The notes under the pieces were generated by a model, which was given only the letters and a program-made list of their open reading frames with translations, was not told where the DNA came from and made no database searches. A stretch of 32,000 nucleotides of DNA from the NCBI RefSeq assembly GCF_000189295.2, contig NC_016803.1, positions 3,660,001 through 3,692,000 of the forward strand, read 5' to 3'. Positions within the stretch are counted from its first letter, which is position 1. The number at the start of each line of letters is the position of its first letter. The translations under genes were made by a program, and so were the position numbers. Source of the stretch: Pseudodesulfovibrio mercurii. Lineage in GTDB: Bacteria; Desulfobacterota; Desulfovibrionia; Desulfovibrionales; Desulfovibrionaceae. Shown piece by piece: positions 3,513-25,122 of the stretch.

Positions 3513-4862
3513 TCAGGCCCGTTCGCGTCGGCGGTTGCGCGGCCGGTCGCCGTGCATGAGCCACGCGCCCGCCACCAGGATGAGCAGGGACAGGACCAGG
3601 AAGTGCAGGAACATGGTCTTCTGGATGGCCCCCCAGATGATGTACAGGGAACCGGCCCCGGCCAGGCAGGGGCAGGCGTAGCGGTTGAAGGGGCCGAGGT
3701 CGGTGAAGGTCTTCATGACCCAGACGTAGAGGGAGATGTAGATGACGTAGAGGAAGGCGATGGGCAGCTCGGAGATGTCCATGAAGTTGCCCCACCAGCC
3801 CGCGAAGTTGCCGTACCAGACCAGGAGCCAGAAGCAGGAGAGGACGTAGCCGATGACCGCCGATAGGGTGGTGCTGTTGGTCAGGGGATTGACCTTGCTG
3901 AACAGGTCCGGGCGCGGGCCCAGGCCGCGCGAGGCGATGGAGAACATGCCGCGCGCCGAGCCCATGATCAGGCCGTTCAGGGTGCCCAGGCAGGAGATGA
4001 TCACGAAAACCGTGAGCAGGGTGCCACCCAGGCGGCCGAAGATGAGGGCGATGACCCGCACCGGGGCCGCGTCGCCCTCGGCCAGGACCTGCTCGTTGGT
4101 CAGCACGCCCGAGATGCCCAGGTAGTAGAGCATGTAGATGCAGACCACGGCGATGGTCCCGACCACCAGGGCGCGGGGCAGGGTGCGCCTGGCGTCCTTG
4201 AGCTCCGCGTTGATGACCGTGGCGATGATCCAGCCCTCGTAGGCGAAGGCCGTGGACAGGGTGGCCAGGGCCAGGCCGCCGCCTCCCTGGGACACGGTCC
4301 TGGCCGCGGTGGTGAAGTTTTCCATGGTCATGCCCGAGTGCATCCCGGTGATGGTCCCGACCACGGCCACCAGGGCCAGGGGGATGAGCTTGATGACGGT
4401 GGAGGCCACCTGCCACCGCCCGGCCAGGACCGGCGAGAAGTAGTTGAGCAGGAAGAAGGCCGTCAGGTAGCCCCAGGCCAGCGGCCACAGGGCGCCCTCC
4501 ACGCCCATCAGTCCCTGGGTGTAGTTGGCCGAGACCCAGGCCAGCACGGCCACCAGGGTGGGATAGTAGATGAAGGTCATGAACCAGGCCACCATGTATC
4601 CGGCGTTTTTGCCGTAGGCCTGTTCGAAGTAGTCCACCACGCCGTTGATCTTCTGGATGCGGGTGGCGATCTTGGAGAAGACGTAGGCGGTGACGACCAT
4701 GATCACGCCGCCGATGAGCCAGGCGGACAGGGCCGTGGGCAGGCTCCCGTTCGAGGCCTCGAGCACGTTGTCCGCCTTGAAGAATACGCCCGAGCCGATG
4801 ACGATGCCCACGACCATGGCGGTCGCGGTCCAGAATCCGTACTTTTTTTGTAGGTTGTTCAT
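3513..4862 (-). CDS. APC-family amino acid permease
   Basis: About 12 predicted TM helices. The N-terminus FWTATAMVVGIVIGSGVFFK is typical of amino acid/polyamine/organocation transporters. Confidence 0.85.
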   Translation of the reverse strand: MNNLQKKYGFWTATAMVVGIVIGSGVFFKADNVLEASNGSLPTALSAWLIGGVIMVVTAYVFSKIATRIQKINGVVDYFEQAYGKNAGYMVAWFMTFIYYPTLVAVLAWVSANYTQGLMGVEGALWPLAWGYLTAFFLLNYFSPVLAGRWQVASTVIKLIPLALVAVVGTITGMHSGMTMENFTTAARTVSQGGGGLALATLSTAFAYEGWIIATVINAELKDARRTLPRALVVGTIAVVCIYMLYYLGISGVLTNEQVLAEGDAAPVRVIALIFGRLGGTLLTVFVIISCLGTLNGLIMGSARGMFSIASRGLGPRPDLFSKVNPLTNSTTLSAVIGYVLSCFWLLVWYGNFAGWWGNFMDISELPIAFLYVIYISLYVWVMKTFTDLGPFNRYACPCLAGAGSLYIIWGAIQKTMFLHFLVLSLLILVAGAWLMHGDRPRNRRRERA

Positions 4863-5080: not shown

Positions 5081-5097
5081 AATTGGTCCAACCAATT
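5081..5097. promoter_or_regulatory. PdhR/LldR-type GntR operator (AATTGGT-N3-ACCAATT)
   Basis: A perfect 7-3-7 inverted repeat, AATTGGTCCAACCAATT. It lies between the candidate -10 and the ATG at 5113 of the FadR-subfamily GntR regulator. Confidence 0.65.
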
Positions 5098-5112
5098 TTG
5101 CGAGGCGTATCC

Positions 5113-5826
5113 ATGGAAGCCAGACCAGTGAGCAGAAAGAGCATATCCGGCGAGATCGTCAGCCAGATCAGGGAGATGATCGATCACGGGCGGTTGCAGC
5201 CCGGCGACCGGCTGCCTGCCGAGCGCCGGCTGGCCGAGCAGTTCGGCGTGTCCCGCACCACGGTGCGCGAGGGCATCAAGATCCTGTCAGAGTCCGGGTT
5301 GCTGACCAGCCGCCAGGGCGCGGGGACCTTTGTCAGCCGTCCGGACGACGGGAACCGGGAGGGGGCGCTGATCGAGGCGGTCCTGGCCGGGAACTACGGC
5401 CTCCAGGACGTCTTCGAGGTGCGCAAGATGCTCGAGCCCGAGATCGCGGCCCTGGCCGCGCGCAACGGCTCTCCGGACGCCAAGACCCGGCTCGAGGCCA
5501 TCATCATGGAGCAGGAACAGGCCATTGCGGACGGCGAGAGCGGGGCGGGCATCGACCACCGCTTTCACCAGGCCCTGGCCGAGGCCTCGGGCAACCCTGT
5601 GTTGCGCGAAATGGTCACGGCCCTGCATGAGGGGTTCTCGCGCAGTCGGGCCGAGGAGGTCCAGTCGCCCCGGCGGGCCAAGGCCTCCCTGGCCGCCCAC
5701 CGGGCCATCGTGGAGGCCGTCAGGAACGGCCACGCCATGCAGGCCGAGCGGGCCATGCGGGAGCATCTCGACGAAGTGGAAAGAATCATCTTTGATAATC
5801 AAAGAGGAGTATACTCAAGGAGATAG
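5113..5826 (+). CDS. GntR-family transcriptional regulator, FadR/FCD subfamily (LldR/PdhR-like)
   Basis: Winged HTH sequence LPAERRLAEQFGVSRTTVREGIKILSESGLLTSRQGAGTFV plus a C-terminal FCD-like helical domain. I prefer the ATG at 5113 (GAGG 7 nt upstream) because the ORF-track TTG at 5083 lies inside the operator. Confidence 0.85.
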   Translation: MEARPVSRKSISGEIVSQIREMIDHGRLQPGDRLPAERRLAEQFGVSRTTVREGIKILSESGLLTSRQGAGTFVSRPDDGNREGALIEAVLAGNYGLQDVFEVRKMLEPEIAALAARNGSPDAKTRLEAIIMEQEQAIADGESGAGIDHRFHQALAEASGNPVLREMVTALHEGFSRSRAEEVQSPRRAKASLAAHRAIVEAVRNGHAMQAERAMREHLDEVERIIFDNQRGVYSRR

Positions 5827-5828
5827 CG

Positions 5829-6845
5829 ATGAAGGAAATCAAAGAGAAAGCACGAGAACTGATGAAGGGATTCTGCCGAGTGTGCAAGGTCTGCGACGGC
5901 AAGGCCTGCGCGGGCGAGGTGCCCGGCATGGGCGGCCTGGGCACGGGCGCGTCCTTCAAGGCCAACGTCGAGGCCCTGGAGGGCTTCCGTCTGAACATGC
6001 GTCTGCTGCACGACGCGGCCGAGCCCGACACCTCCACCACCCTGCTCGGCATCGACCTGTCCATGCCGGTCATGGCCGCGCCCATCGGCGGCGTGTCCTT
6101 CAACATGGGCGGCGGCGTGTCCGAGGAGGACTACATCGACGCCGTGATCGGCGGCTCCAGAGCGGCCGGGGTCATCGGCTGCACCGGCGACGGCGTGCCG
6201 CCCTTCATCCACGAGGCCGGGTTCGCGGCCATCGAGAAGAACGCGGGCCGGGGCATCCCGTTCATCAAGCCGTGGGAAGGCGAGGAGCTGAACGAGAAGC
6301 TCGAGAAGGCGCGCAAGACCGGCTGCACCGTGTTCGGCATGGACGTGGACGCGGCCGGGCTGATCACCCTGCGCCAGATGGGCCGCCCCGTGGCGCCCAA
6401 GCCCGTGTCCGAGCTGAAGAAGATCATCGACCTGGTGCACGGCTGGGGCGCGAAGTTCATCCTCAAGGGGATCATGACCCCGGATGAGGCCGAACTGGCC
6501 GTCAAGGCGGGCGCGGACGCCATCGTGGTCTCCAACCACGGCGGGCGCGTGCTCGACCACACCCCCGGCACGGCCGAGGCCCTGCCCGACGTGGCCGAAA
6601 AGGTCCACGGCAAGATCACCATCCTGGTGGACGGCGGCATCCGCACCGGCGCGGACGTGCTCAAGATGCTGGCGCTCGGGGCCGACGGCGTGCTCATCGG
6701 CCGCCCGGTGTCCGTGGCCGCCGTGGGCGGCCTGCAGGAAGGGGTCGAGAAGTACTACGCGACCATCAAGGCCCAGCTCTCCGGAGCCATGGTCCTGACC
6801 GGCTGCAAGGACATCGCCTCCATCGACGCCAACGTCCTGTTCTAA
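5829..6845 (+). CDS. FMN-dependent alpha-hydroxy acid dehydrogenase/oxidase family protein with N-terminal CxxCxxCx4C motif
   Basis: Contains VSNHGGRVLDH, DGGIRTGADVLKMLALGADGVLIGRP and N-terminal CRVCKVCDGKAC. An AAGGAG RBS is present. Confidence 0.85.
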   Translation: MKEIKEKARELMKGFCRVCKVCDGKACAGEVPGMGGLGTGASFKANVEALEGFRLNMRLLHDAAEPDTSTTLLGIDLSMPVMAAPIGGVSFNMGGGVSEEDYIDAVIGGSRAAGVIGCTGDGVPPFIHEAGFAAIEKNAGRGIPFIKPWEGEELNEKLEKARKTGCTVFGMDVDAAGLITLRQMGRPVAPKPVSELKKIIDLVHGWGAKFILKGIMTPDEAELAVKAGADAIVVSNHGGRVLDHTPGTAEALPDVAEKVHGKITILVDGGIRTGADVLKMLALGADGVLIGRPVSVAAVGGLQEGVEKYYATIKAQLSGAMVLTGCKDIASIDANVLF

Positions 6846-6856
6846 AGGAGCCTCGC

Positions 6857-7657
6857 GTGATCACCACCTACATACTCTACGTCTGCCTTGGGGCGGTGGC
6901 CGGGGTCCTGGCCGGGCTGCTCGGCATCGGCGGGGGCCTGGTCATCGTGCCCATGCTCAACTTCGCCTTCGAGTGGCAGCACTTCCCGATGGAGCACATC
7001 CAGCACATCGCCCTGGGCACCTCCATGGCCACGATCATCTTCACCTCCATCTCCAGCATGCGCGCCCACCACAAGCGCGGGGCCATCAACTACACCGCCT
7101 TCTGGCGGCTGGCTCCGGGCATCATCATCGGCACCTACCTGGGGTCGTGGATCGCCTCCCTGCTGTCCACCACGTTCTTGAAGATCTTCTTCGGTCTGTT
7201 CCTGTATTACGTGGCCACCCAGATGCTCCTGAACATCAAGCCCAAGGCCGCCCACGAGCTGCCCGGCAAGGCCGGGACCTTTGCGGCGGGCAGCGGCATC
7301 GGCGTGTTCTCGGCCCTGGTCGGCATCGGCGGCGGCACCCTGACCGTGCCGTTCCTGTCCTGGTGCAACCTGACCATGCACGCGGCCATCGCCACGGCGG
7401 CGGCCGTGGGGCTGCCCATCGCCCTGGCGGGCACCACCGGGTACATCGTCAACGGCTGGTCCGTGCAGGGCATTCCCGGCCCGCACATCGGTTATGTGTA
7501 CATTCCGGCCCTGCTCGGCATCATCGTGACCAGCACCCTGACCGCGCCCTTCGGGGCCAAGCTGGCCCACAGCCTGCCCGTGACCAAGCTCAAGAAGATC
7601 TTCGCGATCCTCCTCTTCCTCGTCGGCACCCGCATGCTGTATAAAGCATTCATGTAG
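6857..7657 (+). CDS. TauE/SafE-family (DUF81) anion exporter membrane protein
   Basis: Polytopic membrane protein with duplicated GIGGG(L/T) motifs (LLGIGGGLVIVPML and LVGIGGGTLTVPFL). GTG start with AAGGAG 6 nt upstream. Confidence 0.8.
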   Translation: MITTYILYVCLGAVAGVLAGLLGIGGGLVIVPMLNFAFEWQHFPMEHIQHIALGTSMATIIFTSISSMRAHHKRGAINYTAFWRLAPGIIIGTYLGSWIASLLSTTFLKIFFGLFLYYVATQMLLNIKPKAAHELPGKAGTFAAGSGIGVFSALVGIGGGTLTVPFLSWCNLTMHAAIATAAAVGLPIALAGTTGYIVNGWSVQGIPGPHIGYVYIPALLGIIVTSTLTAPFGAKLAHSLPVTKLKKIFAILLFLVGTRMLYKAFM

Positions 7658-15996: not shown

Positions 15997-17766
15997 TCAG
16001 GCCACGGCCTGCTCGTCCTCGGCAAGGCAGACCTTGCGGTCGATTTCGCGGACCTTGCGCAGGACGTTTTTGGCGATGCGCTTGAACTCGCCCAGGTCCC
16101 CGGCCTCGAAGGCGGACTTGGCCCTGGTCAGCCCGGCCAGGTCCACGATCTCGTTGAACAGGTACGGGCCGTAGAGCGGGTCCTGCTTGACGAACAGCTC
16201 CACTCGGGTCAGGGCTGCGTGGATTTCCTTCTGGTTGGCCTTGAGATTTTTGAACAGCTTGGCGAGGTGCTTTTCCATGTTGCGCAGGGAGGTGGTCCAG
16301 CGGGGCGAGCGCGGCTCCATGCGCAGGGGCGGGGTGCCCCGGCGGCAGGCCGCCAGATCGCGCAGGAAGCCTTCCACCGCGCCGGGGGCCGAGGCCAGGA
16401 TGCCCTTGTCGTAGGCCGTATCCACGTCCACCACGGTGGCGCCCTCGATGACAGCGCCGCCGCCGTAGAGGTTGAAGACGGGAAATTCGGACCGCTTGAG
16501 GTCCTCCTCCAGCTCGCGCTTGGCGGTCATGTATTGCAGGGTGGTCAGGATTTCCTCGCCGTCCAGGTTGCGCGTGGTCTGGTGCCAGGACCGGCGGTGC
16601 AGGTCGGTGGTGTGGTTGTGGTGGCCGCCCGAGTGGGACCGGCCGTTGATCCAGGCGTAGTCCTGCCCGGCCAGGAGCAGGTGGGAGACCCCGCAGTAGC
16701 GCAGGAATCGCGACAGGGTCACCGAGACGTTGCCGCCCGCGTCGAGCACCAGGTCCCGTTCCTTGAGCACGTAGGTGCCCACGCCGCCCACGGTCCACAG
16801 GGGCAGGGTCGGGCCGGGGTAGCGCTTGAGGACCATGGGGTCGATCTTGGTGGAGTAGACGAGAGGCACGTCCTGAACGAAGTCCGGGTCCAGCCGCTCG
16901 AAGACCTTGAGCATGGTCGCGTCGTAGTCGATGGCCGCGCACAGGTGGGGCTTGATGCCCAGGTTCTGCAGGGAGGGCACGGTCTGGAGGGCGCAGGTGT
17001 AGAGCACGTGGCCCGTCTTGGCCTTGAGCAGCGGGGCCATGGTCTCGAGCGACGGGCCCGCGCCGAGGATGACCGCGCCCACGCCCGCACCCTTGCCCTC
17101 CATGGACTTGAGGCTGCCGTCGCGCATGGCCTTGGCGAAGTTGTCGATCTCGTTCTTGACCATGACGTCCTGGCGGTGGCGCAGGGTGGACAGCTCCAGG
17201 GAGAAGTTTTCGAGCTTGTGGCGCAGCCAGGTGGACCAGCGGGCGTATTCCGGGCCGAGCTGGCGGCTGGGGATGTCGCTCTTGAGGTGAATCTGGCCGT
17301 AGATGAACTGGAGGTCCAGGTTGCGGACCACCTCGGACAGGAAGCGCTCGTCCGGGACCATCAGGTGGAATTTCTTTCTCTCGAAGAACGGGCGGTAGTC
17401 GGTCTGGCCCAGGCAGGCCAGGAGCATCTCGGAGCGCGGCTCCAGGAGCATGACCTTGTGCGTGTCCGGGGTGTGGGTCAGGACGTGGTTGACCCCGTAG
17501 CCGAGGTTGCAGCCGACGATGAATGTGGCCGAGGTGACCGCCTTTTCCGGGTGGACCCAGTTGGCGTAGAGCCCCTGGGGCGGCAGGGAGGCGAACATTC
17601 CCTTGCCGTTGTCCATCTCCCAGTCGAGGAGCCCGGCCTCGTTGGGGAAGAGCCGCGTCTTGAGCTTGTCCTCGTTGAACGGGCGGGAGGAGAGCCACTG
17701 GAAGATGGGATTCCCGGTGCGTTGCAGGTATTCGATGTTGTCCTTTAGGAACGGATACGGATTCAT
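15997..17766 (-). CDS. DUF115 / MptE-like, motility-accessory-factor (Maf)-like putative glycosyltransferase
   Basis: Contains AVILGAGPSLETMAPLLK, the region around LLLAGQDYAW, and Maf-like length and architecture. I prefer the ATG at 17766 (MNPYPFLKDNIEYL) over the ORF-track start at 17817. Confidence 0.75.
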   Translation of the reverse strand: MNPYPFLKDNIEYLQRTGNPIFQWLSSRPFNEDKLKTRLFPNEAGLLDWEMDNGKGMFASLPPQGLYANWVHPEKAVTSATFIVGCNLGYGVNHVLTHTPDTHKVMLLEPRSEMLLACLGQTDYRPFFERKKFHLMVPDERFLSEVVRNLDLQFIYGQIHLKSDIPSRQLGPEYARWSTWLRHKLENFSLELSTLRHRQDVMVKNEIDNFAKAMRDGSLKSMEGKGAGVGAVILGAGPSLETMAPLLKAKTGHVLYTCALQTVPSLQNLGIKPHLCAAIDYDATMLKVFERLDPDFVQDVPLVYSTKIDPMVLKRYPGPTLPLWTVGGVGTYVLKERDLVLDAGGNVSVTLSRFLRYCGVSHLLLAGQDYAWINGRSHSGGHHNHTTDLHRRSWHQTTRNLDGEEILTTLQYMTAKRELEEDLKRSEFPVFNLYGGGAVIEGATVVDVDTAYDKGILASAPGAVEGFLRDLAACRRGTPPLRMEPRSPRWTTSLRNMEKHLAKLFKNLKANQKEIHAALTRVELFVKQDPLYGPYLFNEIVDLAGLTRAKSAFEAGDLGEFKRIAKNVLRKVREIDRKVCLAEDEQAVA

Positions 17767-17905
17767 GGCGCGGCCTCGCATGCTCAAAAAATGGACGGTT
17801 CCGCCGGGAAAATGCACTTTGCATGCCAGTTGCGCCGGGGCTGTTTTTGCCCTAGGGTGCGGGCATTGATCCAGAACCCAAGCCGCATGATTTCAGGGCG
17901 CTACG

Positions 17906-20185
17906 ATGAACAAGAACCTGCTTGAGCTGATCGGCAATACGCCGCTGGTGGAGATTCGCCACCTCAACCCCAATCCCAACGTCAGGATTTTGGCCAAGAT
18001 CGAGAGCCAGAACCCCGGCGGGTCCATCAAGGACCGCGTGGCCGCCGCCATGATTGAGGCCGCCGAGCGATCGGGCGAGCTGACCAGGGACAAGATCATC
18101 ATCGAGGCCACCTCGGGCAACACCGGGGTCGGGCTGGCCATGGTCGCGGCCATCAAGGGGTACCGCATCAAGCTGCTCATGCCCGAGACGGCGAGCGAGG
18201 AGCGCAAGATGATCATGGCCGCCTACGGGGCGGAGCTGGAGCTGACGCCGGGCCACCTGGCCACGGACGGGGCCATCGAGCAGGCCTACCGCTACGCCCG
18301 CGAGGAGCCGGACAAGTACGTGCTCATGGACCAGTACAACAACCCGGCCTCCATCCAGGCGCACTACATGGGCACCGGGCTGGAAATCTGGGACCAGACC
18401 GGCGGCGCGGTGACGCACTGCGTCATGACGCTCGGCACCTCGGGCACGGCCATGGGCATCGCGAAACGGCTGCACGAGATGGGCAAGGTCTACGTGGCCG
18501 CGGTGGAGCCCTACGCGGGTCACAAGATTCAGGGCCTCAAGAACATGCTCGAATCCTACCCGCCGGGCATCTACGACAAGACCGCCCTGGACGAGGTCCT
18601 GCACGTGGAGGACGAGGACGCCTTCGAGAACTGCCGCAGGCTGGCGCGCGAGGAGGGCATCTTCGCGGGCATGAGCTCGGGCGCGGCGCTGGGCGGAGCG
18701 TTGCAGATGGCCGAGCGGCTGGACAAGGGGCTGATCGTAGTCATCTTCCCGGACTCGGGCGAGCGCTACCTGTCCACCCACCTCTACCGGCGGCAGTCGG
18801 GCAGCGGGGTGACGATTTTCGACATGGCCACGGGCGCGGACAAGATGCTCAACACCGGCGCGGGCCTTTGCGCGTACACCATGGGCCCGAGCCTGGACAA
18901 CCCGGACGGCCTGGACTCCTGGCGGCGGCTGGTGCTGCTCGACGTGTTCCTCCGCCACCTGGCCGGGCGCGGGGTCAAGGCCTCGGGCGTGGCCGGGCTG
19001 ACCGACATGGACGACCGCACCCTGGCGGCCGCCCGCGAGGCGGACACGGACCGGGCCTCCCTGGCCGAGTCGCGGCGCGAAGACATCCTGGCGCGCGGCC
19101 GGGCTATGGGGTTGTCCGATGAACTGAAATTTCCCCTGTCCTCGGCCAGCAACGAGACCGCGCTTTCCCTGTGCCGCAAGCTCCTGGGCAAGGGGCTGGC
19201 CTACGAGAAGCTGCGCAGCGTCTACTTCGACGTGTTCCGCGACAAGCGGTACGGCGAGATCGGCACCGTGGACATGGACAAGGTCTCGGGCGGCCGCACC
19301 GTGGACCTGGACGCCTACGTCAAGGACAACCCGCTGGATTTCACCTTGCTCAAGCGCGCCTCGCTCATGGACCTGAAGCGCGGCGAGGTCCTGGAGACCC
19401 AGTGGGGCAACGTGCGGCCGAGCTGGTTTTTGCAGCACGCGGCCATGGCGCTCGACGAGCTGCCGCGCACGGACGTGATGATCGGTTCGGACAAGCACCG
19501 CTTCCCGCACCTGGAGAACCTGCGGGCCATCTGGTCCACGGCCGGGCGCGAGGTCCAGGCGTGGACCGCCTGCCAGCAGACCTCGGACGCCGAGGGCGAG
19601 ACCCTGGCCACGGTGGCCGAAACCCTCGGCGGGTTCCGCGCGGCCCGGCTGTGGCTCCTGTCCGCCGCCCCGCGCAAGCCGCTCTGCGCCTCGGCCGACA
19701 ACCTGGCCATGTGGGCGCGCAACTGGCGGCGCATCCAGGAGGGCGCGGTGGCCCTGACCCTGGCGCTCGACGCGCGCGGCGACACGGTCTCGACCGACGT
19801 GGAGCAGGCGGTCTTCGACCTCAAGGCGGCCTTCCGCACGGCCATGGACGACGGCCTCAAGCTGCACCATTTCTGGCCCGCCCTGTTCCGGTTCATCAAG
19901 CAGGTCAACCAGTGGGCCGGGGACGACCGGCTGACCGGCGCGGCCGCCCGGGCCTGCCTGGACGAACTCAAGGCCATGGACGCCATCCTGGCCATCCTCG
20001 ACCCCGCCCAGATGCCCGTGCCCCTGTCCGACCTGCCCGTCCCGGTCCAGGGCTTGGTGGCCGACCGCCAGAAGGCGCGCGAGGCAAAGGACTTCGCCCT
20101 GTCCGACGAACTGCGCGACAAGATCGCCGCCGCCGGATTCCGGGTGGAAGACACAGGCGGCGCGCCGAGAGTCTTCAACACCTAG
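17906..20185 (+). CDS. fusion protein: CysK/CysM-type PLP-dependent cysteine synthase (aa 1-295) plus degenerate cysteinyl-tRNA synthetase-like domain (aa ~301-759)
   Basis: The N-terminal half has GGSIKDR (PLP lysine codon at 18029-18031), TSGNTG and GTSGT. The C-terminal half is collinear with CysRS (LTDMDDRTL, KDNPLDFTLLK, GSDKHRFPHLEN and a C-terminal RQKAREAKDF...FRVEDT region). It lacks HIGH, KMSKS and the Zn-ligand cysteines. Confidence 0.8.
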   Translation: MNKNLLELIGNTPLVEIRHLNPNPNVRILAKIESQNPGGSIKDRVAAAMIEAAERSGELTRDKIIIEATSGNTGVGLAMVAAIKGYRIKLLMPETASEERKMIMAAYGAELELTPGHLATDGAIEQAYRYAREEPDKYVLMDQYNNPASIQAHYMGTGLEIWDQTGGAVTHCVMTLGTSGTAMGIAKRLHEMGKVYVAAVEPYAGHKIQGLKNMLESYPPGIYDKTALDEVLHVEDEDAFENCRRLAREEGIFAGMSSGAALGGALQMAERLDKGLIVVIFPDSGERYLSTHLYRRQSGSGVTIFDMATGADKMLNTGAGLCAYTMGPSLDNPDGLDSWRRLVLLDVFLRHLAGRGVKASGVAGLTDMDDRTLAAAREADTDRASLAESRREDILARGRAMGLSDELKFPLSSASNETALSLCRKLLGKGLAYEKLRSVYFDVFRDKRYGEIGTVDMDKVSGGRTVDLDAYVKDNPLDFTLLKRASLMDLKRGEVLETQWGNVRPSWFLQHAAMALDELPRTDVMIGSDKHRFPHLENLRAIWSTAGREVQAWTACQQTSDAEGETLATVAETLGGFRAARLWLLSAAPRKPLCASADNLAMWARNWRRIQEGAVALTLALDARGDTVSTDVEQAVFDLKAAFRTAMDDGLKLHHFWPALFRFIKQVNQWAGDDRLTGAAARACLDELKAMDAILAILDPAQMPVPLSDLPVPVQGLVADRQKAREAKDFALSDELRDKIAAAGFRVEDTGGAPRVFNT

Positions 20186-20212: not shown

Positions 20213-20238
20213 GGGCCGCCCCCAGGGTGGCCCTTTTT
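20213..20238 (+). terminator. rho-independent terminator
   Basis: Stem GGGCCGCC with GGTGGCCC (one G-T pair), loop CCCAG, then T5. It lies 28 nt after the stop at 20185. Confidence 0.7.
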
Positions 20239-20285
20239 GCATTTTGCCGGTACGGTGGCGGTAGAAATACGGAGGTCTTCATCCC

Positions 20286-20468
20286 ATGGCAGTGAACACG
20301 GACAGCATCCAGTCGGCAATGCCCCTCCTGAAGCAGAAGGGCGTCTCGGAAGACTACATCCTGGCCTACATCGTGGCCCTCGAATCCGCCGGAGCCGGCA
20401 ACGAAAACCCCTCCAGCGTCTTCAACACCATGCTCCGGGCATTGGCGGAGGCCAAGCCGTCCTCGTGA
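20286..20468 (+). CDS. small hypothetical protein (60 aa)
   Basis: GGAGG lies 9 nt upstream of the ATG. Composition is native GC-rich with GC3 bias. I do not recognise a family. Confidence 0.5.
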   Translation: MAVNTDSIQSAMPLLKQKGVSEDYILAYIVALESAGAGNENPSSVFNTMLRALAEAKPSS

Positions 20469-20519
20469 GTCCCGTGGAGTAGACGGCTAATGGTCGGGAT
20501 TCCTAGGCTGCTCGAACTC

Positions 20520-21350
20520 AACTCGATTTGATTTTGTGTCTTCCGTCGGGCCAACAATACAGAAGTATTTTGTCGGAAGAGCTGCAGTGGGGAAAAGGGA
20601 ATGCGATTACCAGCTGCATAATGGAGACTCTTAATGCAGTTAGCTTCTTCTCTTATTTATTTCGGATATCCGCGTTAAATTTTTTAACTATAGCAGCAGC
20701 CATTTTCCGTAGTTCTTTGGCGTGACATTTTTTGTACTTCAGACCGGAACCGCAAGGACAAGAACAGCCTGGCCCATTACCAATCTCAATAAGTTCTTCA
20801 AGGCTTTCTTTCCACTCATATATCCATTCTAGAATATCTGCATCTATATCTTCGAATGTTCTGACACGTTGGAATGAATTTTCTCCATAATTAGTAAAAT
20901 GATACAACGCATTGTTAATTAAGATATAATCATCGATTAGTCTGTTGTTGGATAAATTTTTCCTGATGTTATTAACTTGTTTATCGTTGTATCCATTATT
21001 TTTATCATGAAGGAATAAAATTTTATTCTCTCCACTGCGATTAGGTGTGATATCTATCCAATCACCTTGCTCAGATTCCCATATAGAGTGAAATTCAGCT
21101 TCAATAAAAAGATTCGGTATCATCCATATTTTCCAACCATAAAGGATATTCCCGCCATCTTGTTCAATTTTTTTTTGAACATTGGGAAAGCATTCATCAA
21201 GCAAAGAATATTTTTCTTTTTGTATAGATAAATATACTAGTGGTCCAGTTGATATTTCGGAGCAAAAGTCTTTGACTTCTTCCGTTATATTCGGAGGTAC
21301 GATTTCCATGATTTATTTCTTCACTGACGACTAATATTGATTCTGTGGAT
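20520..21350. mobile_element. AT-rich island (about one-third G+C) carrying one gene; probable horizontally acquired insertion
   Basis: Composition shifts abruptly against roughly two-thirds G+C flanks. The right edge abuts the stop codon (21354) of a native membrane-protein gene. No recombinase or clear terminal repeats were seen. Confidence 0.45.
20653..21309 (-). CDS. hypothetical protein with C-terminal SEC-C metal-binding motif
   Basis: A 218-aa ORF with AT-rich codon usage. The sequence GCSCPCGSGLKYKKCH is encoded at 20722-20769. I do not recognise the N-terminal ~180 aa. Confidence 0.7.
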   Translation of the reverse strand: MEIVPPNITEEVKDFCSEISTGPLVYLSIQKEKYSLLDECFPNVQKKIEQDGGNILYGWKIWMIPNLFIEAEFHSIWESEQGDWIDITPNRSGENKILFLHDKNNGYNDKQVNNIRKNLSNNRLIDDYILINNALYHFTNYGENSFQRVRTFEDIDADILEWIYEWKESLEELIEIGNGPGCSCPCGSGLKYKKCHAKELRKMAAAIVKKFNADIRNK

Positions 21351-21353
21351 TTC

Positions 21354-22163: not shown

Positions 22164-23294
22164 TCAGTCAAAGAGATACAGGAATTTCGCGTAGCCTTCG
22201 GCGGCCATTTCATCCTTTGGGATGAAGCGCAGGGCGGCGGAGTTCAGGCAGTAGCGCAGGCCGGTGGGCGCGGGGCCGTCGTTGAACACGTGGCCCAGGT
22301 GCGAGTCGCCTCCTTTGCTCCGCACTTCGGTGCGCGCGGCGAAGAGGGAGCGGTCCTCCCTTTCAACCAGGTTTTCCGGGACCAGGGGGCGGGTGAAGCT
22401 CGGCCAGCCCGAGCCGGAATCGAACTTGTCCGTGCTGGCGAAGAGCGGTTCGCCGCTGACCACGTCCACGTAGATGCCGTCCGCGTGGTTGTCCCAGTAG
22501 CGGTTGTTGAAGGGCGGTTCCGTGCCTTCGCGCTGGGTCACGTCGTACTGGAGCGGGGTGAGCGTGCGCTTGAGGACGTCCGGGGCGGGCTTGAGGAAGG
22601 GCTCGGGGGCCGGGGGTTCGGTTTGGGCGCGGGCCGTCTTGACCACAGCCTCGGCCTCTTCGCCCCAGTGCTCGGCCGTGAACCGGTCGCGGCCCGAGAA
22701 GTGGCGGTAGGTCTTGTAGCGCACGGGATTGAACCGGCAGTAGTTCTGGTGGTAGCCCTCGGCCGGGTAGAAGGTGGTGAATTCGACGACGGCGGTGACC
22801 ACCGGGCCATCGAACCGGCCGGATTCGTCCAGGGCCTTTTTCGAGGCTTCGGCCACGGCGCGTTGGGCCTTGTCGTGGTAGAAGATGGCCGAGGTGTACT
22901 GGAACCCCCGGTCTCCGAAGGAGCCGCCGCCGTCCGTGGGGTCGAAGTGGCGCCAGTAGTGGTCGAGAATCTGGGCGTAGCCGATGCGCGCAGGGTCGAA
23001 GGTCACCTGGACCGCCTCGCGGTGGCCCGTGGTCCCGCTTGAGACCTGTTCGTAGGTGGGATCGGGTTCGCTGCCGCCCGCATAGCCCGAGACGACCTTG
23101 ATCACGCCGGGCAGCTTCTGCATGTCCGCCTCCACGCACCAGAAACAACCGCCCGCCAGGGTGGCCGTCTCGAAGTGGGTATTGCCGTTGTCAGCCATGG
23201 CCTGTTCCTCCGATGTCGAAAACAGGGTCGATCCGATTCCTGCGGCCAGGAGCACGGCTCCGGCCAGGACGATGAGCGCGGGTTTGCGGAACAT
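22164..23294 (-). CDS. msrAB: secreted bifunctional methionine sulfoxide reductase MsrA/MsrB
   Basis: Contains MsrA GGCFWCVE, MsrB GWPSF and RYCLNS, and an N-terminal signal-like [19 protein letters not shown]. The ATG at 23294 has a GGAGG RBS. The ORF-track start at 23753 adds a Pro-rich artefact. Confidence 0.9.
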
Positions 23295-23337
23295 GGGATC
23301 GCCTCCGTTTTCGCTAATAGTAGCTGTTATCGGAAGA

Positions 23338-23365
23338 TATATAGACATGAACCGGACCAAGTCAA
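23338..23365 (-). promoter_or_regulatory. candidate sigma-70 promoter of msrAB
   Basis: On the minus strand: TTGACT (23360-23365), a 16-nt spacer, then TATATA (23338-23343). It lies in a local AT-rich patch about 45 nt upstream of the ATG. Confidence 0.5.
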
Positions 23366-23370
23366 TGGTC

Positions 23371-23600
23371 TGAGCGGGCGGCGGCAGGGGATGCGGCGGT
23401 GGTGGTTGGGGGGGGCGACAAGGGGGCGATGGAGGGTGCGACCTGGCGGTGAAGGGGCTTCGGGGACGGTGAGGCGGGTCTGATGGTGTGAGGGCGGGGG
23501 CGGTGTGGGGGAAGTGACGGGGGGAAGGTGGTGCGGGCTTGTGAGGGGCTGCGCGGGAGCCCGTGAAGGGCGCGCGGGGGCGTGCTGGGGGGTGCGCGTA
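23371..23600 (+). repeat. strand-asymmetric G-rich tract with quasi-periodic GTGA(A/G/C)GG motif
   Basis: About 20 runs of three or more G on the plus strand and few C. GTGA starts at 23449, 23469, 23488, 23514, 23541 and 23563. Confidence 0.7.
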
Positions 23601-23775
23601 GTTCGGGCGGGGCGCGGGAAAAACGGCCATTCGGTATTTTTTGCCGGAAAAGGGTGGATTTTTGATTTGTTTTGGGGCAAGTGGCATTGCTTCGCGGCCC
23701 CGTGATGTGCATAGTACCCGTGTCGGGCCGTAGGCCGCGACCGAATTTCGCATTCAATCACAGCAAGGAGAGACC

Positions 23776-24324
23776 ATGCCCAACCAGAATTACGTTCTTT
23801 TCAGCGGCGGCGCCCAGGGTGCCGAGAATCAGTTCGGCAAGCTCGCCGAGTACCACGGCCTGTCCGAGGTGAACTTCACCTTCGAAGGCCACCGCATCGA
23901 GCGCACCCGCGGCGTGCGGGTCCTGACCGACGAGGAACTGACCCAGAAGGACGTCAGCCTGACCTACGTGTCCAGGCTCCTGAACCGCAAGTTCACCAAC
24001 GCGGAAAAGATGCGCAAGGTCCTGCAGACCATCATGTGGCAGGTGGACGCCAGCCAGCAGATCTTCGTGGTCGGCACCATCCTGGACGACGGCACGGTCA
24101 AGGGCGGCACCGGCTGGGGTGCGGAGTTCGCCAAGATCTGCAACAAGGAGCTGTTCGTCTTCGACCAGGCCAAGGATGCATGGTCCACCTGGGAGCACGG
24201 CGCGTGGGTCGCGGTGGACGCCCCCAAGATCACCGCCGGCCACTTCACCGGCACCGGCACCCGCTTCCTTGAGGAAAACGGCAAGAAGGCGCTGGAGGAT
24301 TTGTTCTCCCGTTCCTTCAAATAG
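23776..24324 (+). CDS. hypothetical protein, possible SLOG-like (LOG/DprA/YpsA-type) Rossmann fold
   Basis: N-terminal VLFSGGAQGAENQFGKLA and C-terminal FTGTGTRFLEENG resemble the two glycine-rich loops of SLOG-superfamily proteins. AAGGAGAG RBS and native GC content. Confidence 0.6.
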   Translation: MPNQNYVLFSGGAQGAENQFGKLAEYHGLSEVNFTFEGHRIERTRGVRVLTDEELTQKDVSLTYVSRLLNRKFTNAEKMRKVLQTIMWQVDASQQIFVVGTILDDGTVKGGTGWGAEFAKICNKELFVFDQAKDAWSTWEHGAWVAVDAPKITAGHFTGTGTRFLEENGKKALEDLFSRSFK

Positions 24325-24344
24325 CGTTTTCGCACGACGGATAT

Positions 24345-24384
24345 AAAAGGCGGCCCGGATCACATCCGGGCCGCCTTTTTTCGT
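24345..24384. terminator. bidirectional terminator hairpin, left copy of 40-bp direct repeat
   Basis: Sequence AAAAGGCGGCCCGGATCACATCCGGGCCGCCTTTTTTCGT. It forms a perfect 15-bp stem (24345-24359 with 24365-24379) with loop TCACA. It lies 21 nt after the stop at 24324. Confidence 0.85.
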
Positions 24385-25082
24385 TGCATGTTGTCAAAGT
24401 AAATTGCATATAAAGAAAATGAGTATAGATAGTATTGACAGAAACAGGTTGCGTGATCTTTATCACGAGTTCGATCAATTTTTGGCTTCTATTCATGGTC
24501 TTTATTTAGATGCGTGCATAGGGTTTCGTCTAATAAATGTGAACCTTGATGAGAAACAGTCAGAATTAATAAAACTGATGGGAGGAAAAAGTTCTGGACT
24601 TCTAAGCTTACTCAATTTTTCTCATGAGAAATTCTATGGGGGAGAGTTTGCAGCATCTGGACTACATAGACCAAAAGTAGCAGATATTCGTGAGAGGACT
24701 GAAGAGAATGGTCGCAATGCAAATCTTGTAGGTGGAATGTGTGTGATTTCTTTATATGAGCATTGGGATGCGTATTTGCAAAATGAAATTGCAATAGCGA
24801 TTGGTCTGTCGAACAAGGATGATTTGAAGCATGATTTTTGGGGTGATATGCGAGATTTGAGGAATTATATAGTCCATCACGGAAGAAGAAATAGGAAAAA
24901 ATTGAAAAAAATGAAGCTATTGACTATGTGGCGTGATGATGGCGTTGTGGAGATCAATAATGAAGTAATAGCAATCATATTTAGACATTGCTTTCGGTTT
25001 AGAAATGAAATTCATACAATAAGTTTACCGCCACGACCAACTTTGCGTATCCCTTATTCCTGGAAGTAGTTAACAGGATATG
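24385..25082. mobile_element. AT-rich single-gene cassette bounded by the duplicated terminator
   Basis: About 700 bp at roughly 35% G+C, lying between identical 40-mers at 24345-24384 and 25083-25122. It carries one ORF and no recombinase gene. Confidence 0.6.
24419..25069 (+). CDS. hypothetical protein, candidate HEPN-type RNase (RNxxxH motif)
   Basis: The motif MRDLRNYIVHHG has its R codon at 24860-24862 and its H codon at 24875-24877. The protein looks largely helical and is followed by a basic stretch, RRNRKKLKKMK. The start is either the ATG at 24419 or the ORF-track TTG at 24404. Confidence 0.65.
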   Translation: MSIDSIDRNRLRDLYHEFDQFLASIHGLYLDACIGFRLINVNLDEKQSELIKLMGGKSSGLLSLLNFSHEKFYGGEFAASGLHRPKVADIRERTEENGRNANLVGGMCVISLYEHWDAYLQNEIAIAIGLSNKDDLKHDFWGDMRDLRNYIVHHGRRNRKKLKKMKLLTMWRDDGVVEINNEVIAIIFRHCFRFRNEIHTISLPPRPTLRIPYSWK

Positions 25083-25122
25083 AAAAGGCGGCCCGGATCA
25101 CATCCGGGCCGCCTTTTTTCGT
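25083..25122. terminator. bidirectional terminator hairpin, right copy of 40-bp direct repeat
   Basis: Identical 40-mer to 24345-24384. It lies 18 nt beyond the stop (25140) of the minus-strand sigma-54 activator gene. Confidence 0.85.

Follow-up and report, generated by a model that had tools for sequence, protein, structure and literature searches.

The 32,000-nucleotide stretch of the Pseudodesulfovibrio mercurii genome analysed here (hereafter the window) carries a gene whose 759-residue product joins, in a single reading frame, a cysteine synthase dependent on pyridoxal 5'-phosphate (PLP) to a region of about 460 residues that keeps the fold of a class I cysteinyl-tRNA synthetase (CysRS) and has lost its catalytic signatures. 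This is a widespread and uncharacterised pseudo-synthetase fusion with a traceable evolutionary history. Judging from conservation patterns, we regard as evenly poised the proposal that the protein combines an active CysM with a non-catalytic, probably tRNA-Cys-binding, pseudo-synthetase. The gene and its main parts, including the connective peptide (CP) insertion of the synthetase fold, are as follows (AF2, AlphaFold2 model):

17906..20185 (+), fusion gene in the list of open reading frames (ORFs); ATG start, 759 aa, stop codon at 20183-20185
17924..18754 (+), PLP-dependent cysteine synthase domain, aa 7-283 (CysM-like fold to about aa 295), from Pfam PALP
18791..18871 (+), variable inter-domain linker, aa 296-322 (27 residues), the fastest-evolving part of the protein
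18872..19534 (+), CysRS-like Rossmann fold with CP insertion, aa 323-543, from Pfam, PDB and Foldseek matches
19199..19441 (+), hyper-conserved CP block, aa 432-512 (AYEKLRSVYFD ... TVDLDAYVKDNPLDFTLLKRA ... ETQWGNVRPSWFLQHA), from the conservation profile; rich in newly invariant basic residues
19646..20029 (+), stem-contact fold and helical bundle, aa 581-708, from AF2 and conservation; W583, M602, W603, N606, Q611 and W657 are newly invariant
20030..20161 (+), C-terminal anticodon-binding domain, aa 709-752, from CysS_C and alignment

An earlier annotation made from the nucleotide letters and their translations (the sequence-only reading) had proposed one 759-aa ORF joining two domains at exactly these coordinates, and this was borne out. 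The GC content of its three codon positions (0.66/0.45/0.95) follows the pattern of the real genes of the window, and neither a stop codon nor a frameshift splitting the ORF near 18800 was seen, the same single frame being present in 76 independent genomes. Orthologues over the full length, 56-92% identical and named 'cysteine synthase' by NCBI, were found in the genera Pseudodesulfovibrio, Salidesulfovibrio, Humidesulfovibrio, Paucidesulfovibrio, Maridesulfovibrio and Desulfovibrio. Pseudodesulfovibrio sediminis and Desulfovibrio ferrophilus (WP_126381224.1) are examples of complete genomes with the degenerate fusion. The window itself has a GC content of 66% and shows 88-89% nucleotide identity and synteny with Pseudodesulfovibrio karagichevae and with a second genome, deposited as Desulfovibrio caledoniensis. 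All the motif strings quoted in the sequence-only reading were located in the window protein, among them the following:

18998-19024 (+), LTDMDDRTL motif
inside 19484-19534 (+), FPHLEN motif
20066-20155 (+), C-terminal block beginning RQKAREAKDF

The N-terminal half had been taken for an intact CysK/CysM-type PLP enzyme, and profile, alignment and structural evidence all agree. Residues 7-283 matched PALP (PF00291) with E=1.2e-68 and 232 bits (cutoff 35), and the N-half scored 352.9 with the NCBIfam model TIGR01136 (cysKM), above the curated cutoff of 344.15 for membership in that subfamily. Over their whole length, the first 300 residues can be aligned with the CysM proteins of E. coli and Salmonella, the best PDB match being E. 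coli CysM (2bhs, E=2e-78), and an AF2 model reached a target-normalised Foldseek template modelling (TM) score of 0.91 on CysM. It is about 45-50% identical end to end to CysM (O-acetylserine sulfhydrylase B; PDB 2bhs, 2jc3) and CysK, with every PLP and substrate loop present, and the fusion differs from them by the added C-terminal module of 460 aa. The strict equivalog scores stay below their cutoffs both for CysM (TIGR01138, 350.8 vs 394.2) and for CysK (TIGR01139, 311.3 vs 350.95); by these scores the PLP half is nearer CysM than CysK, yet falls in neither equivalog. Its catalytic elements are:

18029..18031 (+), K42 codon AAG, the PLP Schiff-base lysine of GGSIKDR (18017-18037), aligned to 'GSVKDR' of CysM
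18110..18127 (+), TSGNTG substrate (Asn) loop, aa 69-74, invariant across fusions
18434..18448 (+), GTSGT glycine-rich PLP-phosphate loop, aa 177-181, from alignment with CysM
18521..18547 (+), HKIQGLKNM loop, with K212 aligned to R210 of E. coli CysM
18668..18688 (+), GMSSGAA, aa 255-261, from alignment with CysM; its serine faces the PLP pyridine nitrogen in CysK/CysM

The codon of the catalytic lysine lies precisely where the earlier annotation had placed it. None of the 122 fusions aligned (the window protein, the intact fusion P0286 and 120 further relatives described below) deviates at K42, TSGNTG, GTSGT or GMSSGAA, and H206, Q209, G210, L211, K212 and N213 of the HKIQGLKNM loop are likewise invariant throughout the fusions; in this loop the fusion protein has a lysine where E. 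coli CysM has R210. Residues 203-218 were modelled by AF2 with low confidence, consistent with a mobile loop. On this conservation, the PLP half is very probably an active cysteine synthase.

The C-terminal half of about 460 aa was likewise found to be collinear with class I CysRS, as had been claimed, with Pfam, PDB alignment and Foldseek in agreement. Residues 323-543 matched tRNA-synt_1e (PF01406; E=2.5e-21, 76.8 bits vs a cutoff of 27) and residues 709-752 matched CysS_C (PF23493; E=3.3e-6, 27.6 bits vs a cutoff of 23), while alignments to the CysRS structures 3tqo (E=2.7e-28) and 1li5 (E=3.2e-26) cover the C-terminal 459 aa completely. When the C-half was modelled alone (predicted local distance difference test, pLDDT, 83.5; predicted TM score, pTM, 0.85), the best PDB match of the model in Foldseek was the E. 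coli CysRS-tRNA-Cys complex 1u0b_B (E=2.9e-20), followed by other CysRS with TM up to 0.81, then by MshC (TM 0.73-0.76), with MetRS further off. The CysRS core fold, the CP insertion, the helical bundle and the C-terminal anticodon domain are thus all present. The score with the CysRS equivalog TIGR00435 (cysS) was 118.2, well below the cutoff of 340. Compared with canonical CysRS (E. coli CysS; 1li5, 1li7, 1u0b), the C-half shows collinear homology over about 450 residues and the same fold, anticodon domain included, but it is only about 24% identical, lacks HIGH and KMSKS and is fused to a PLP enzyme.

For the comparison of motifs, about 85 canonical CysRS representatives were taken from a library of 1.84 billion proteins and aligned together with the window protein; positions follow the E. 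coli numbering, which was confirmed by the identity of the reference sequence to PDB 1li5_A. C28, HxGx, W205, C209, H234, E238 and KMSKS are present in nearly all of these canonical enzymes, and the same columns of the window protein hold M, GLDS, W, H, H and L, with KMSKS absent. The zinc ligands of E. coli CysRS, which we take to be C28, C209, H234 and E238 (1li5/1li7 structures), are therefore reduced to one of four, H535. The positions concerned, all from the alignment and with their variation across the clade of degenerate fusions to which the window protein belongs, are:

18881..18883 (+), M326 at the position of zinc ligand C28; M, I, V, F or P across the clade
18908..18919 (+), GLDS (aa 335-338) at the HIGH position; GLDS, DPEx or ELGF across the clade
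19016..19027 (+), RTLA at the KIIK position, with K73 lost
19424..19438 (+), WFLQH, in which W507 corresponds to W205 and is kept, H206 is changed to F, E208 to Q and C209 to H511 (H/M/Q/V/L/I in the clade)
19502..19522 (+), FPHLENL, in which H535 corresponds to H234 and is kept and invariant, H235 is changed to L and E238 to L539
19583..19633 (+), remnant of the KMSKS loop (SDAEGETLATVAETLGG), poorly conserved

The pattern K[MLIFV][SAG][KRTS]S gave no match in the window protein, and in 84-89% of the clade members the positions of K266, M267 and K269 are deleted. In a stricter comparison of 70 canonical CysRS with 63 members of the clade, 73 positions were at least 90% conserved in the canonical set, and 30 of these are lost in the clade, 33 are kept and 10 are partly kept. 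The losses include C28, T31, V32, Y33, H37, G39, N66, T68, K73, W184, W194, G201, G204, H206, E208, C209, S210, H224, H235, E238, Q241, H256 and N273, among others, with K266, M267, K269 and S270 counted as lost since they lie within the deletion; G29, P30, D48, Y135, F232 and P233 are among the residues kept. The C-half has thus kept the CysRS fold without the ATP-binding signatures and without the zinc/cysteine site. With both of these lost, it should be unable to activate cysteine or to aminoacylate tRNA, and since a pseudo-synthetase cannot charge tRNA, Cys-tRNA would have to come from another enzyme. The literature searched did not report cysS from a Desulfovibrio genome, and a search with a GC-rich canonical CysRS (P0152) brought up relatives from Zixibacteria and Acidobacteriota and none from Desulfovibrionales.

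The alignment controls and the low equivalog score uphold the loss of HIGH, KMSKS and zinc/cysteine-site residues announced by the sequence-only reading: a proper alignment did not recover them, and the match of the C-half to the CysRS family was itself significant. Some details needed amendment. The statement that the zinc and cysteine-binding residues are replaced holds for three of the four zinc ligands, but H535 (H234) and W507 (W205) are invariant. GLDSWRRL does stand at the HIGH position, at 18908-18931 instead of about 18905-18928, and EGETL does lie in the KMSKS region, at 19592-19606 instead of about 19580-19603.

The family was surveyed by scanning one genome per species, and locus-level results were drawn from the 80 best loci. 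We found the degenerate domain encoded in at least 591 species. Apart from a couple of stray metagenome-assembled genomes (MAGs), the 80 best loci belong to Desulfovibrionaceae, Desulfomicrobium, Desulfohalobiaceae and Desulfonatronovibrio, and the architecture is near-universal in Desulfovibrionales, a sulfate-reducing order of ecological importance (at least 591 species genomes). At all 76 loci not interrupted by a contig end, the PLP domain lies upstream in the same frame; these loci come from independent genomes and MAGs, complete chromosomes included, and their proteins are 35-90% identical. No standalone degenerate domain was seen among the loci examined. Whether relatives carry the fusion or two genes, as the sequence-only reading had asked, is thus answered by a fusion in 76/76 complete loci and by separate genes in another lineage. 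At one locus (L074 2274-6549, CAZBER010000122.1) the fusion ORF occurs twice, inverted and encoding an identical protein; a second CysRS-like ORF beside this fusion was considered as a paralogue and rejected, the contig being a palindrome (hairpin) that arose in the assembly of this public MAG.

Ratios of nonsynonymous to synonymous substitution rates (dN/dS) were computed against the two closest orthologues (dS 0.2-0.4). We obtained 0.13-0.15 for the PLP half and about 0.19 for the CysRS-like half (437 residues), and both halves are under purifying selection. The linker gave 0.22-0.27 against these orthologues, with values listed up to 0.73, an identity of 19-85%, and an AF2 pLDDT below 50 at residues 286-298.

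Conservation within the dead module has moved as well. The mean frequency of the top residue peaks in canonical CysRS in the second Rossmann half, which contains the active site (0.73), whereas in the dead clade it is highest in the CP block 432-512 (0.78) and lowest in the KMSKS region (0.42). Invariant in the clade and not in canonical CysRS are 26 positions, including R341, R437, R445, R484, K491, V503, Q510, W543, W583, W603 and W657. Of 16 positions conserved as Lys/Arg in the canonical enzymes, 11 are kept and five are lost, K73, K266 and K269 among them, and the clade has acquired 14 new conserved basic positions, six of them within the CP block, the mean net charge of which passes from -1.9 in canonical CysRS to +0.9 in the clade. 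In the anticodon domain, every residue near-invariant in canonical CysRS is kept in the clade (R423, R427, K430, D436, R439, G446 and D451); window residues R721, R725, K728, D734, R737, G744, E748 and D749 correspond to E. coli R423, R427, K430, D436, R439, G446, E450 and D451. R427 is named as an anticodon-domain residue in work on the CysRS-tRNA complex. The purifying selection, the shifted conservation peak and the 26 new invariant positions argue for a remodelled functional module and not a decaying relic, and since the dead module has been remodelled and kept under purifying selection, it would be expected to do something non-catalytic. The retained anticodon-domain residues and the kept and newly gained basic positions fit a kept or enhanced polyanion-binding surface, for which tRNA-Cys is the obvious candidate.

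The origin of the fusion could be followed in a profile search, which returned a score gradient from the degenerate clade to ordinary CysRS. On this gradient stand standalone, motif-intact CysRS, such as P0147 (HIGT, KMARS and all zinc ligands), that already have the AYEKxRSVYFD and TVDLDxYxKDNPxDFTLxKR signatures. The gene of P0147 lies directly 3' of a 296-aa cysM, the TGA of which is followed by 2 nt and then by the ATG; the two genes together span L081 5108-7455. This cysM is 59% identical to the window PLP domain and ends in ...GERYLSTSLYPS, with the same ...GERYLSTSLY junction as in the fusion, and a single stop-loss or frameshift at this locus would recreate the fusion. Of the fusions, P0134, P0142 and P0286 (the last being MBL6975143.1) are intact; P0132 and P0163 have the zinc site intact with HIGH and KMSKS lost, and in P0129, P0130 and P0271, which have lost HIGH and KMSKS, C209 is in addition changed to Ser. 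A neighbour-joining tree nested these stages in the order separate genes, intact fusions, intermediates and dead clade, the last on one long branch.

When the intact and intermediate forms were combined into a profile, a search with it brought up another 120 fusions of 757-801 aa (P0343 and P0372 among them) from Desulfobacterales, Desulfococcaceae, other Thermodesulfobacteriota and Acidobacteriota MAGs, which NCBI names 'cysteine--tRNA ligase'. In the 122-sequence alignment, 114 fusions keep all four zinc ligands; among the 120 relatives, C28 and H234 are present in all, C209 is replaced by Ser in six and E238 by Lys in one. HxGx and KMSRS occur together in 12 of the 122, TLGL with KMSRS in 28, and HxGE with KKxDE/NE at the KMSKS position in 64 (among P0305-P0404, e.g. 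L083 6001-8277). Since intermediates keep the zinc ligands without HIGH or KMSKS, the ATP motifs appear to have eroded before the zinc site, with the window clade as the end point. The intact and partly degenerate CysM-CysRS fusions share with the window protein the architecture, the junction, the PLP invariants and the signatures of the CysRS half (AYEKxRSxYFD and TVDLDxYxKDNPxDFTLxKR), and are its evolutionary sisters or ancestors; the difference is that the window clade has lost motifs that they keep. We found no characterised member among them in the literature. As a separate observation, the 64 HxGE/KKxDE fusions of Desulfobacterales type may, to judge from their motifs, be cysteine-binding pseudo-synthetases and not ligases, despite the name 'cysteine--tRNA ligase'. 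A 768-aa protein of a Nanoarchaeota MAG (P0149, MFW6014224.1) also joins a cysteine synthase to a canonical CysRS (HIGN, KMSKS and all zinc ligands); it groups with ordinary CysRS in the tree, apparently a second, independent origin of the architecture.

On the proposal of an active CysM carrying a tRNA-binding pseudo-synthetase, an ancestral cysM-cysS pair would have given rise to a bifunctional fusion ('make cysteine, then charge tRNA-Cys'), and in the lineage leading to Desulfovibrionales the ATP-binding motifs would have been lost first and the zinc/cysteine site next. In the present protein, the CysM-type half would catalyse a PLP-dependent beta-replacement in which O-acetyl- or O-phospho-serine reacts with sulfide or thiosulfate, and a flexible linker of about 27 aa would tether this cysteine synthase permanently to a pseudo-synthetase derived from CysRS over its full length. 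Binding of tRNA-Cys, or of another polyanionic partner, would most likely fall to the anticodon-binding domain that has been kept and to the basic CP block. Cysteine synthesis could in this way be coupled to the pool of tRNA-Cys, or scaffolded to it, following the logic of HisZ and GCN2. Cysteine sensing at the canonical zinc site was also considered and rejected for the window clade, where it is unlikely with three of the four zinc ligands lost and variable. Of the roles that the sequence-only reading had listed (tRNA or partner binding, sensing, sulfur transfer), non-catalytic binding is thus the one that the evidence favours.

A more specific version, which we put forward tentatively as a rather improbable one, makes the module a tRNA-Cys sensor mounted on a cysteine synthase. 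The C-terminal domain would read the GCA anticodon and the acceptor arm would lie on the CP block, so that binding of uncharged or charged tRNA-Cys would switch the CysM active site on or off, giving an enzyme-level feedback from the tRNA charging status to amino-acid synthesis. The series from operon to active fusion, to loss of the ATP motifs with zinc kept, to loss of everything would then represent a stepwise conversion of an enzyme into a sensor. If true, such a sensor would suit sulfate reducers: they never run short of sulfide, and something other than its supply has to keep cysteine from being overproduced.

Several considerations weigh against the proposal of an active CysM with a tRNA-binding partner domain. 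The PLP half scores below the strict cutoff of the CysM equivalog, so its substrates are not defined by class. The anticodon-domain residues could be kept for folding alone, binding of tRNA or of any ligand being deduced from their conservation, and a HisZ-like sensing of the protein's own amino acid is unlikely with the canonical cysteine site gone. The neighbour-joining tree carries no support values and includes a long branch, which makes the nested order provisional. The full-length AF2 model has confident domains but a pTM of 0.59, with low confidence at the most conserved stretch (434-476), and it places the two domains as separate bodies with no usable inter-domain geometry. Finally, neither a conserved operon partner at the 80 loci nor a regulatory RNA in the window points to a function.

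Some of the same observations would suit a structural relic, in which the dead module has no ligand of its own and is kept for the folding, solubility or oligomerisation of the synthase half. The missing partner gene and regulatory RNA, the variable linker and the separately modelled domains are in line with this view, and many of the retained canonical residues (G29, P30, D48, Y135, F232, P233 and others) could be structural. It leaves unexplained, however, the 26 new invariants, the surface-rich CP block with its gained basic residues and the selective retention of each conserved basic or acidic residue of the anticodon domain; ballast would not be expected to show constraint as strong as a dN/dS of about 0.19 across 437 residues, and standalone CysM enzymes fold without such a module. 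We therefore consider a relic unlikely, while giving it some weight. That the module has instead acquired a new chemistry seems to us distinctly doubtful. In this case cysteine would undergo an ATP-independent sulfur reaction, catalysed or assisted by the reshaped pocket with its W507 and H535 and the newly invariant Q510, V503 and R/D residues. It could form a persulfide, pass on its sulfur or be ligated to a thiol acceptor of low molecular weight, in loose analogy to MshC or to the persulfide activity of CysRS. The latter activity was reportedly mapped to the KIIK and KMSKS lysines, positions that correspond here to RTLA and to the deletion. MshC, the mycothiol cysteine ligase and a CysRS paralogue, is an ATP-dependent ligase that keeps HIGH, KMSKS and zinc, all of them missing from the window protein, which scored 39.5 with TIGR03447 against a cutoff of 485.1. 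The residues tied to both activities are thus all gone, no cysteine or other nucleophile has become invariant in the pocket, and both an MshC-like ligase and a CARS-type persulfide synthase were down-weighted because the motifs that they need are absent. What speaks for new chemistry is that the pocket is reshaped yet conserved, that the hosts live in sulfide, that CysRS is reported to make cysteine persulfide (Cys-SSH; Akaike et al. 2017, as cited in PMC6401616), and that MshC, the nearest fold after CysRS in the Foldseek search, provides a precedent for a CysRS-derived fold re-used outside translation for non-tRNA chemistry (PMC2922099).

The association of a PLP beta-replacement enzyme with a module bearing the tRNA-Cys anticodon-domain signature also raises the possibility of tRNA-dependent cysteine synthesis, for which multi-protein complexes are known (PMC5688128). 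The dead arm would hold tRNA-Cys while the PLP half converted mis-acylated O-phosphoseryl- or seryl-tRNA-Cys to Cys-tRNA-Cys, as a fold-type-II analogue of SepCysS. This is very improbable in our view: it needs SepRS or a mis-charging enzyme, and neither is indicated, although no SepRS-directed search was made; SepCysS is stated to be absent from D. vulgaris in PMC5764234; the PLP domain is of fold-type II and CysM-like, not of fold-type I; the ancestral and sister forms are an ordinary cysM and an active cysS, which need no such route; the 3' end of the tRNA would sit in the acceptor-end pocket of the dead module and not at the PLP site; and the loops with which CysM binds free substrates are all intact. 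That the C-half is a working CysRS with unconventional motifs is scarcely credible, in agreement with the sequence-only reading, which had judged aminoacylation unlikely. The fold is complete, W205, H234 and the anticodon domain are kept and relatives are labelled 'cysteinyl-tRNA synthetase' by JGI pipelines, but, unlike in about 70 canonical controls, which keep all these features, HIGH is replaced, KMSKS deleted and three of the four zinc ligands lost and variable, the equivalog score of 118 falls far short of 340, and NCBI names the protein only 'cysteine synthase'. That the fusion is an artefact of sequencing or assembly, or that two neighbours have recently joined as a pseudogene, could be imagined from the adjacent cysM and cysS lying 2 nt apart in another lineage; the probability of this is negligible, and it is already refuted by the recurrence of the same in-frame fusion in 76 independent genomes and MAGs and by the purifying selection.

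To our knowledge, regulatory pseudo-synthetases of metabolism are known from few cases only, such as HisZ and the HisRS-like domain of GCN2. HisZ is the HisRS-like regulatory subunit of the short-form ATP phosphoribosyltransferase; it is catalytically dead and regulates histidine synthesis. As established for that system, a dead synthetase paralogue is attached to a biosynthetic enzyme of the cognate amino acid and kept by selection. Compared by function and not by homology, the fusion resembles HisZ in the absence of catalytic motifs under purifying selection and in the physical association with the cognate biosynthetic enzyme, which is covalent in 76/76 complete loci; the cognate amino-acid site is not found in the window clade but is retained in the Desulfobacterales intermediates. 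HisZ is of class II and a separate subunit acting on the first enzyme of its pathway, with the amino-acid site kept to sense histidine, whereas the fusion module is of class I, covalently attached to the last enzyme of the pathway and devoid of the canonical cysteine/zinc site. The HisRS-like domain of GCN2 is degenerate, binds uncharged tRNA and controls the fused kinase. It offers a parallel for the sensor suggested above, being a non-aminoacylating synthetase domain fused to the catalytic domain that it controls, and differs in being eukaryotic, of class II and fused to a kinase, and in that tRNA binding has been demonstrated for GCN2 and is deduced for the window protein.

Assemblies of a cysteine-synthesis enzyme with a tRNA-binding protein are represented by the CysK:CdiA-CT:tRNA complex (PDB 8zyc) and, as described in PMC5688128, by the SepRS-SepCysE-SepCysS transsulfursome. 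These are non-covalent and involve unrelated partners (a toxin tRNase in the former; class II SepRS and a fold-type-I PLP enzyme in the latter), with no dead CysRS. In our literature searches, neither a fusion of cysteine synthase with CysRS nor a pseudo-synthetase derived from CysRS was found to be described, with the proviso that absence from the searchable library does not mean undescribed, and neither Pfam nor NCBIfam has a model for the fusion or for the degenerate domain. If the proposal is true, the fusion adds to the regulatory pseudo-synthetases a class I, CysRS-derived example that is covalently joined to the enzyme making its former substrate. The surviving intermediates form an unusually complete series, so that the path from enzyme to non-catalytic module can be tested directly by biochemical work and by reconstructing ancestral forms. 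The labels in use are inconsistent, 'cysteine synthase' for the window clade and 'cysteine--tRNA ligase' for relatives devoid of KMSKS, and could mislead metabolic reconstructions and inventories of aminoacyl-tRNA synthetases of Desulfobacterota.

The fusion gene appears monocistronic. Upstream of it lies a short region shared with a divergent gene:

17818..17905 (no strand), 88-bp divergent intergenic region between the MptE-like gene and the fusion gene, presumed promoter

No sigma-70 consensus was detected upstream of the fusion gene. No riboswitch or T-box was found, no Rfam family reaching its gathering score anywhere in the window, and the window holds no tRNA genes. The divergent gene (15997-17817, minus strand) encodes an MptE-like protein of about 600 aa (Maf-type, flagellin-glycosylation-like), beyond which lie PAP2 and PMT_2 glycosyltransferase genes; the shared 88-bp region is conserved in arrangement. 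In an all-versus-all clustering of the ORFs at the 80 loci, this MptE/Maf-like gene was the sole recurrent neighbour (41/80, all Desulfovibrionaceae), and its adjacency is probably lineage synteny without any functional hint. No cysE, cysK or cysS was found near the fusion in the loci examined.

On the 3' side of the fusion gene, a 1.1-kb segment of about 50% GC (20238-21352) contains an ORF with a SEC-C motif (20653-21309, minus strand). This islet varies between strains: in the two closest genomes its flanks are syntenic, but 1.3-1.5 kb of unrelated sequence stands in its place. A second stretch of low GC content (46%) at 24000-25100 carries a 221-aa ORF with a TTG start (24404-25069, plus strand), beside which a 182-aa ORF (23776-24324) gave no Pfam match. 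Elsewhere in the window, genes for a GntR/FCD regulator, an FMN-dependent alpha-hydroxy-acid dehydrogenase and a TauE/SafE sulfite exporter are grouped at 5083-7657, adjoined by an amino-acid permease gene (3513-4862, minus strand), and this cluster is possibly an organosulfonate or hydroxy-acid utilisation module. The ORF at 22164-23753 (minus strand) encodes an MsrA-MsrB fusion for which the longest-ORF call places a proline-rich extension of about 190 aa before the PMSR domain (residue 196 onwards); probably its true start is internal, or a signal or anchor region is present.

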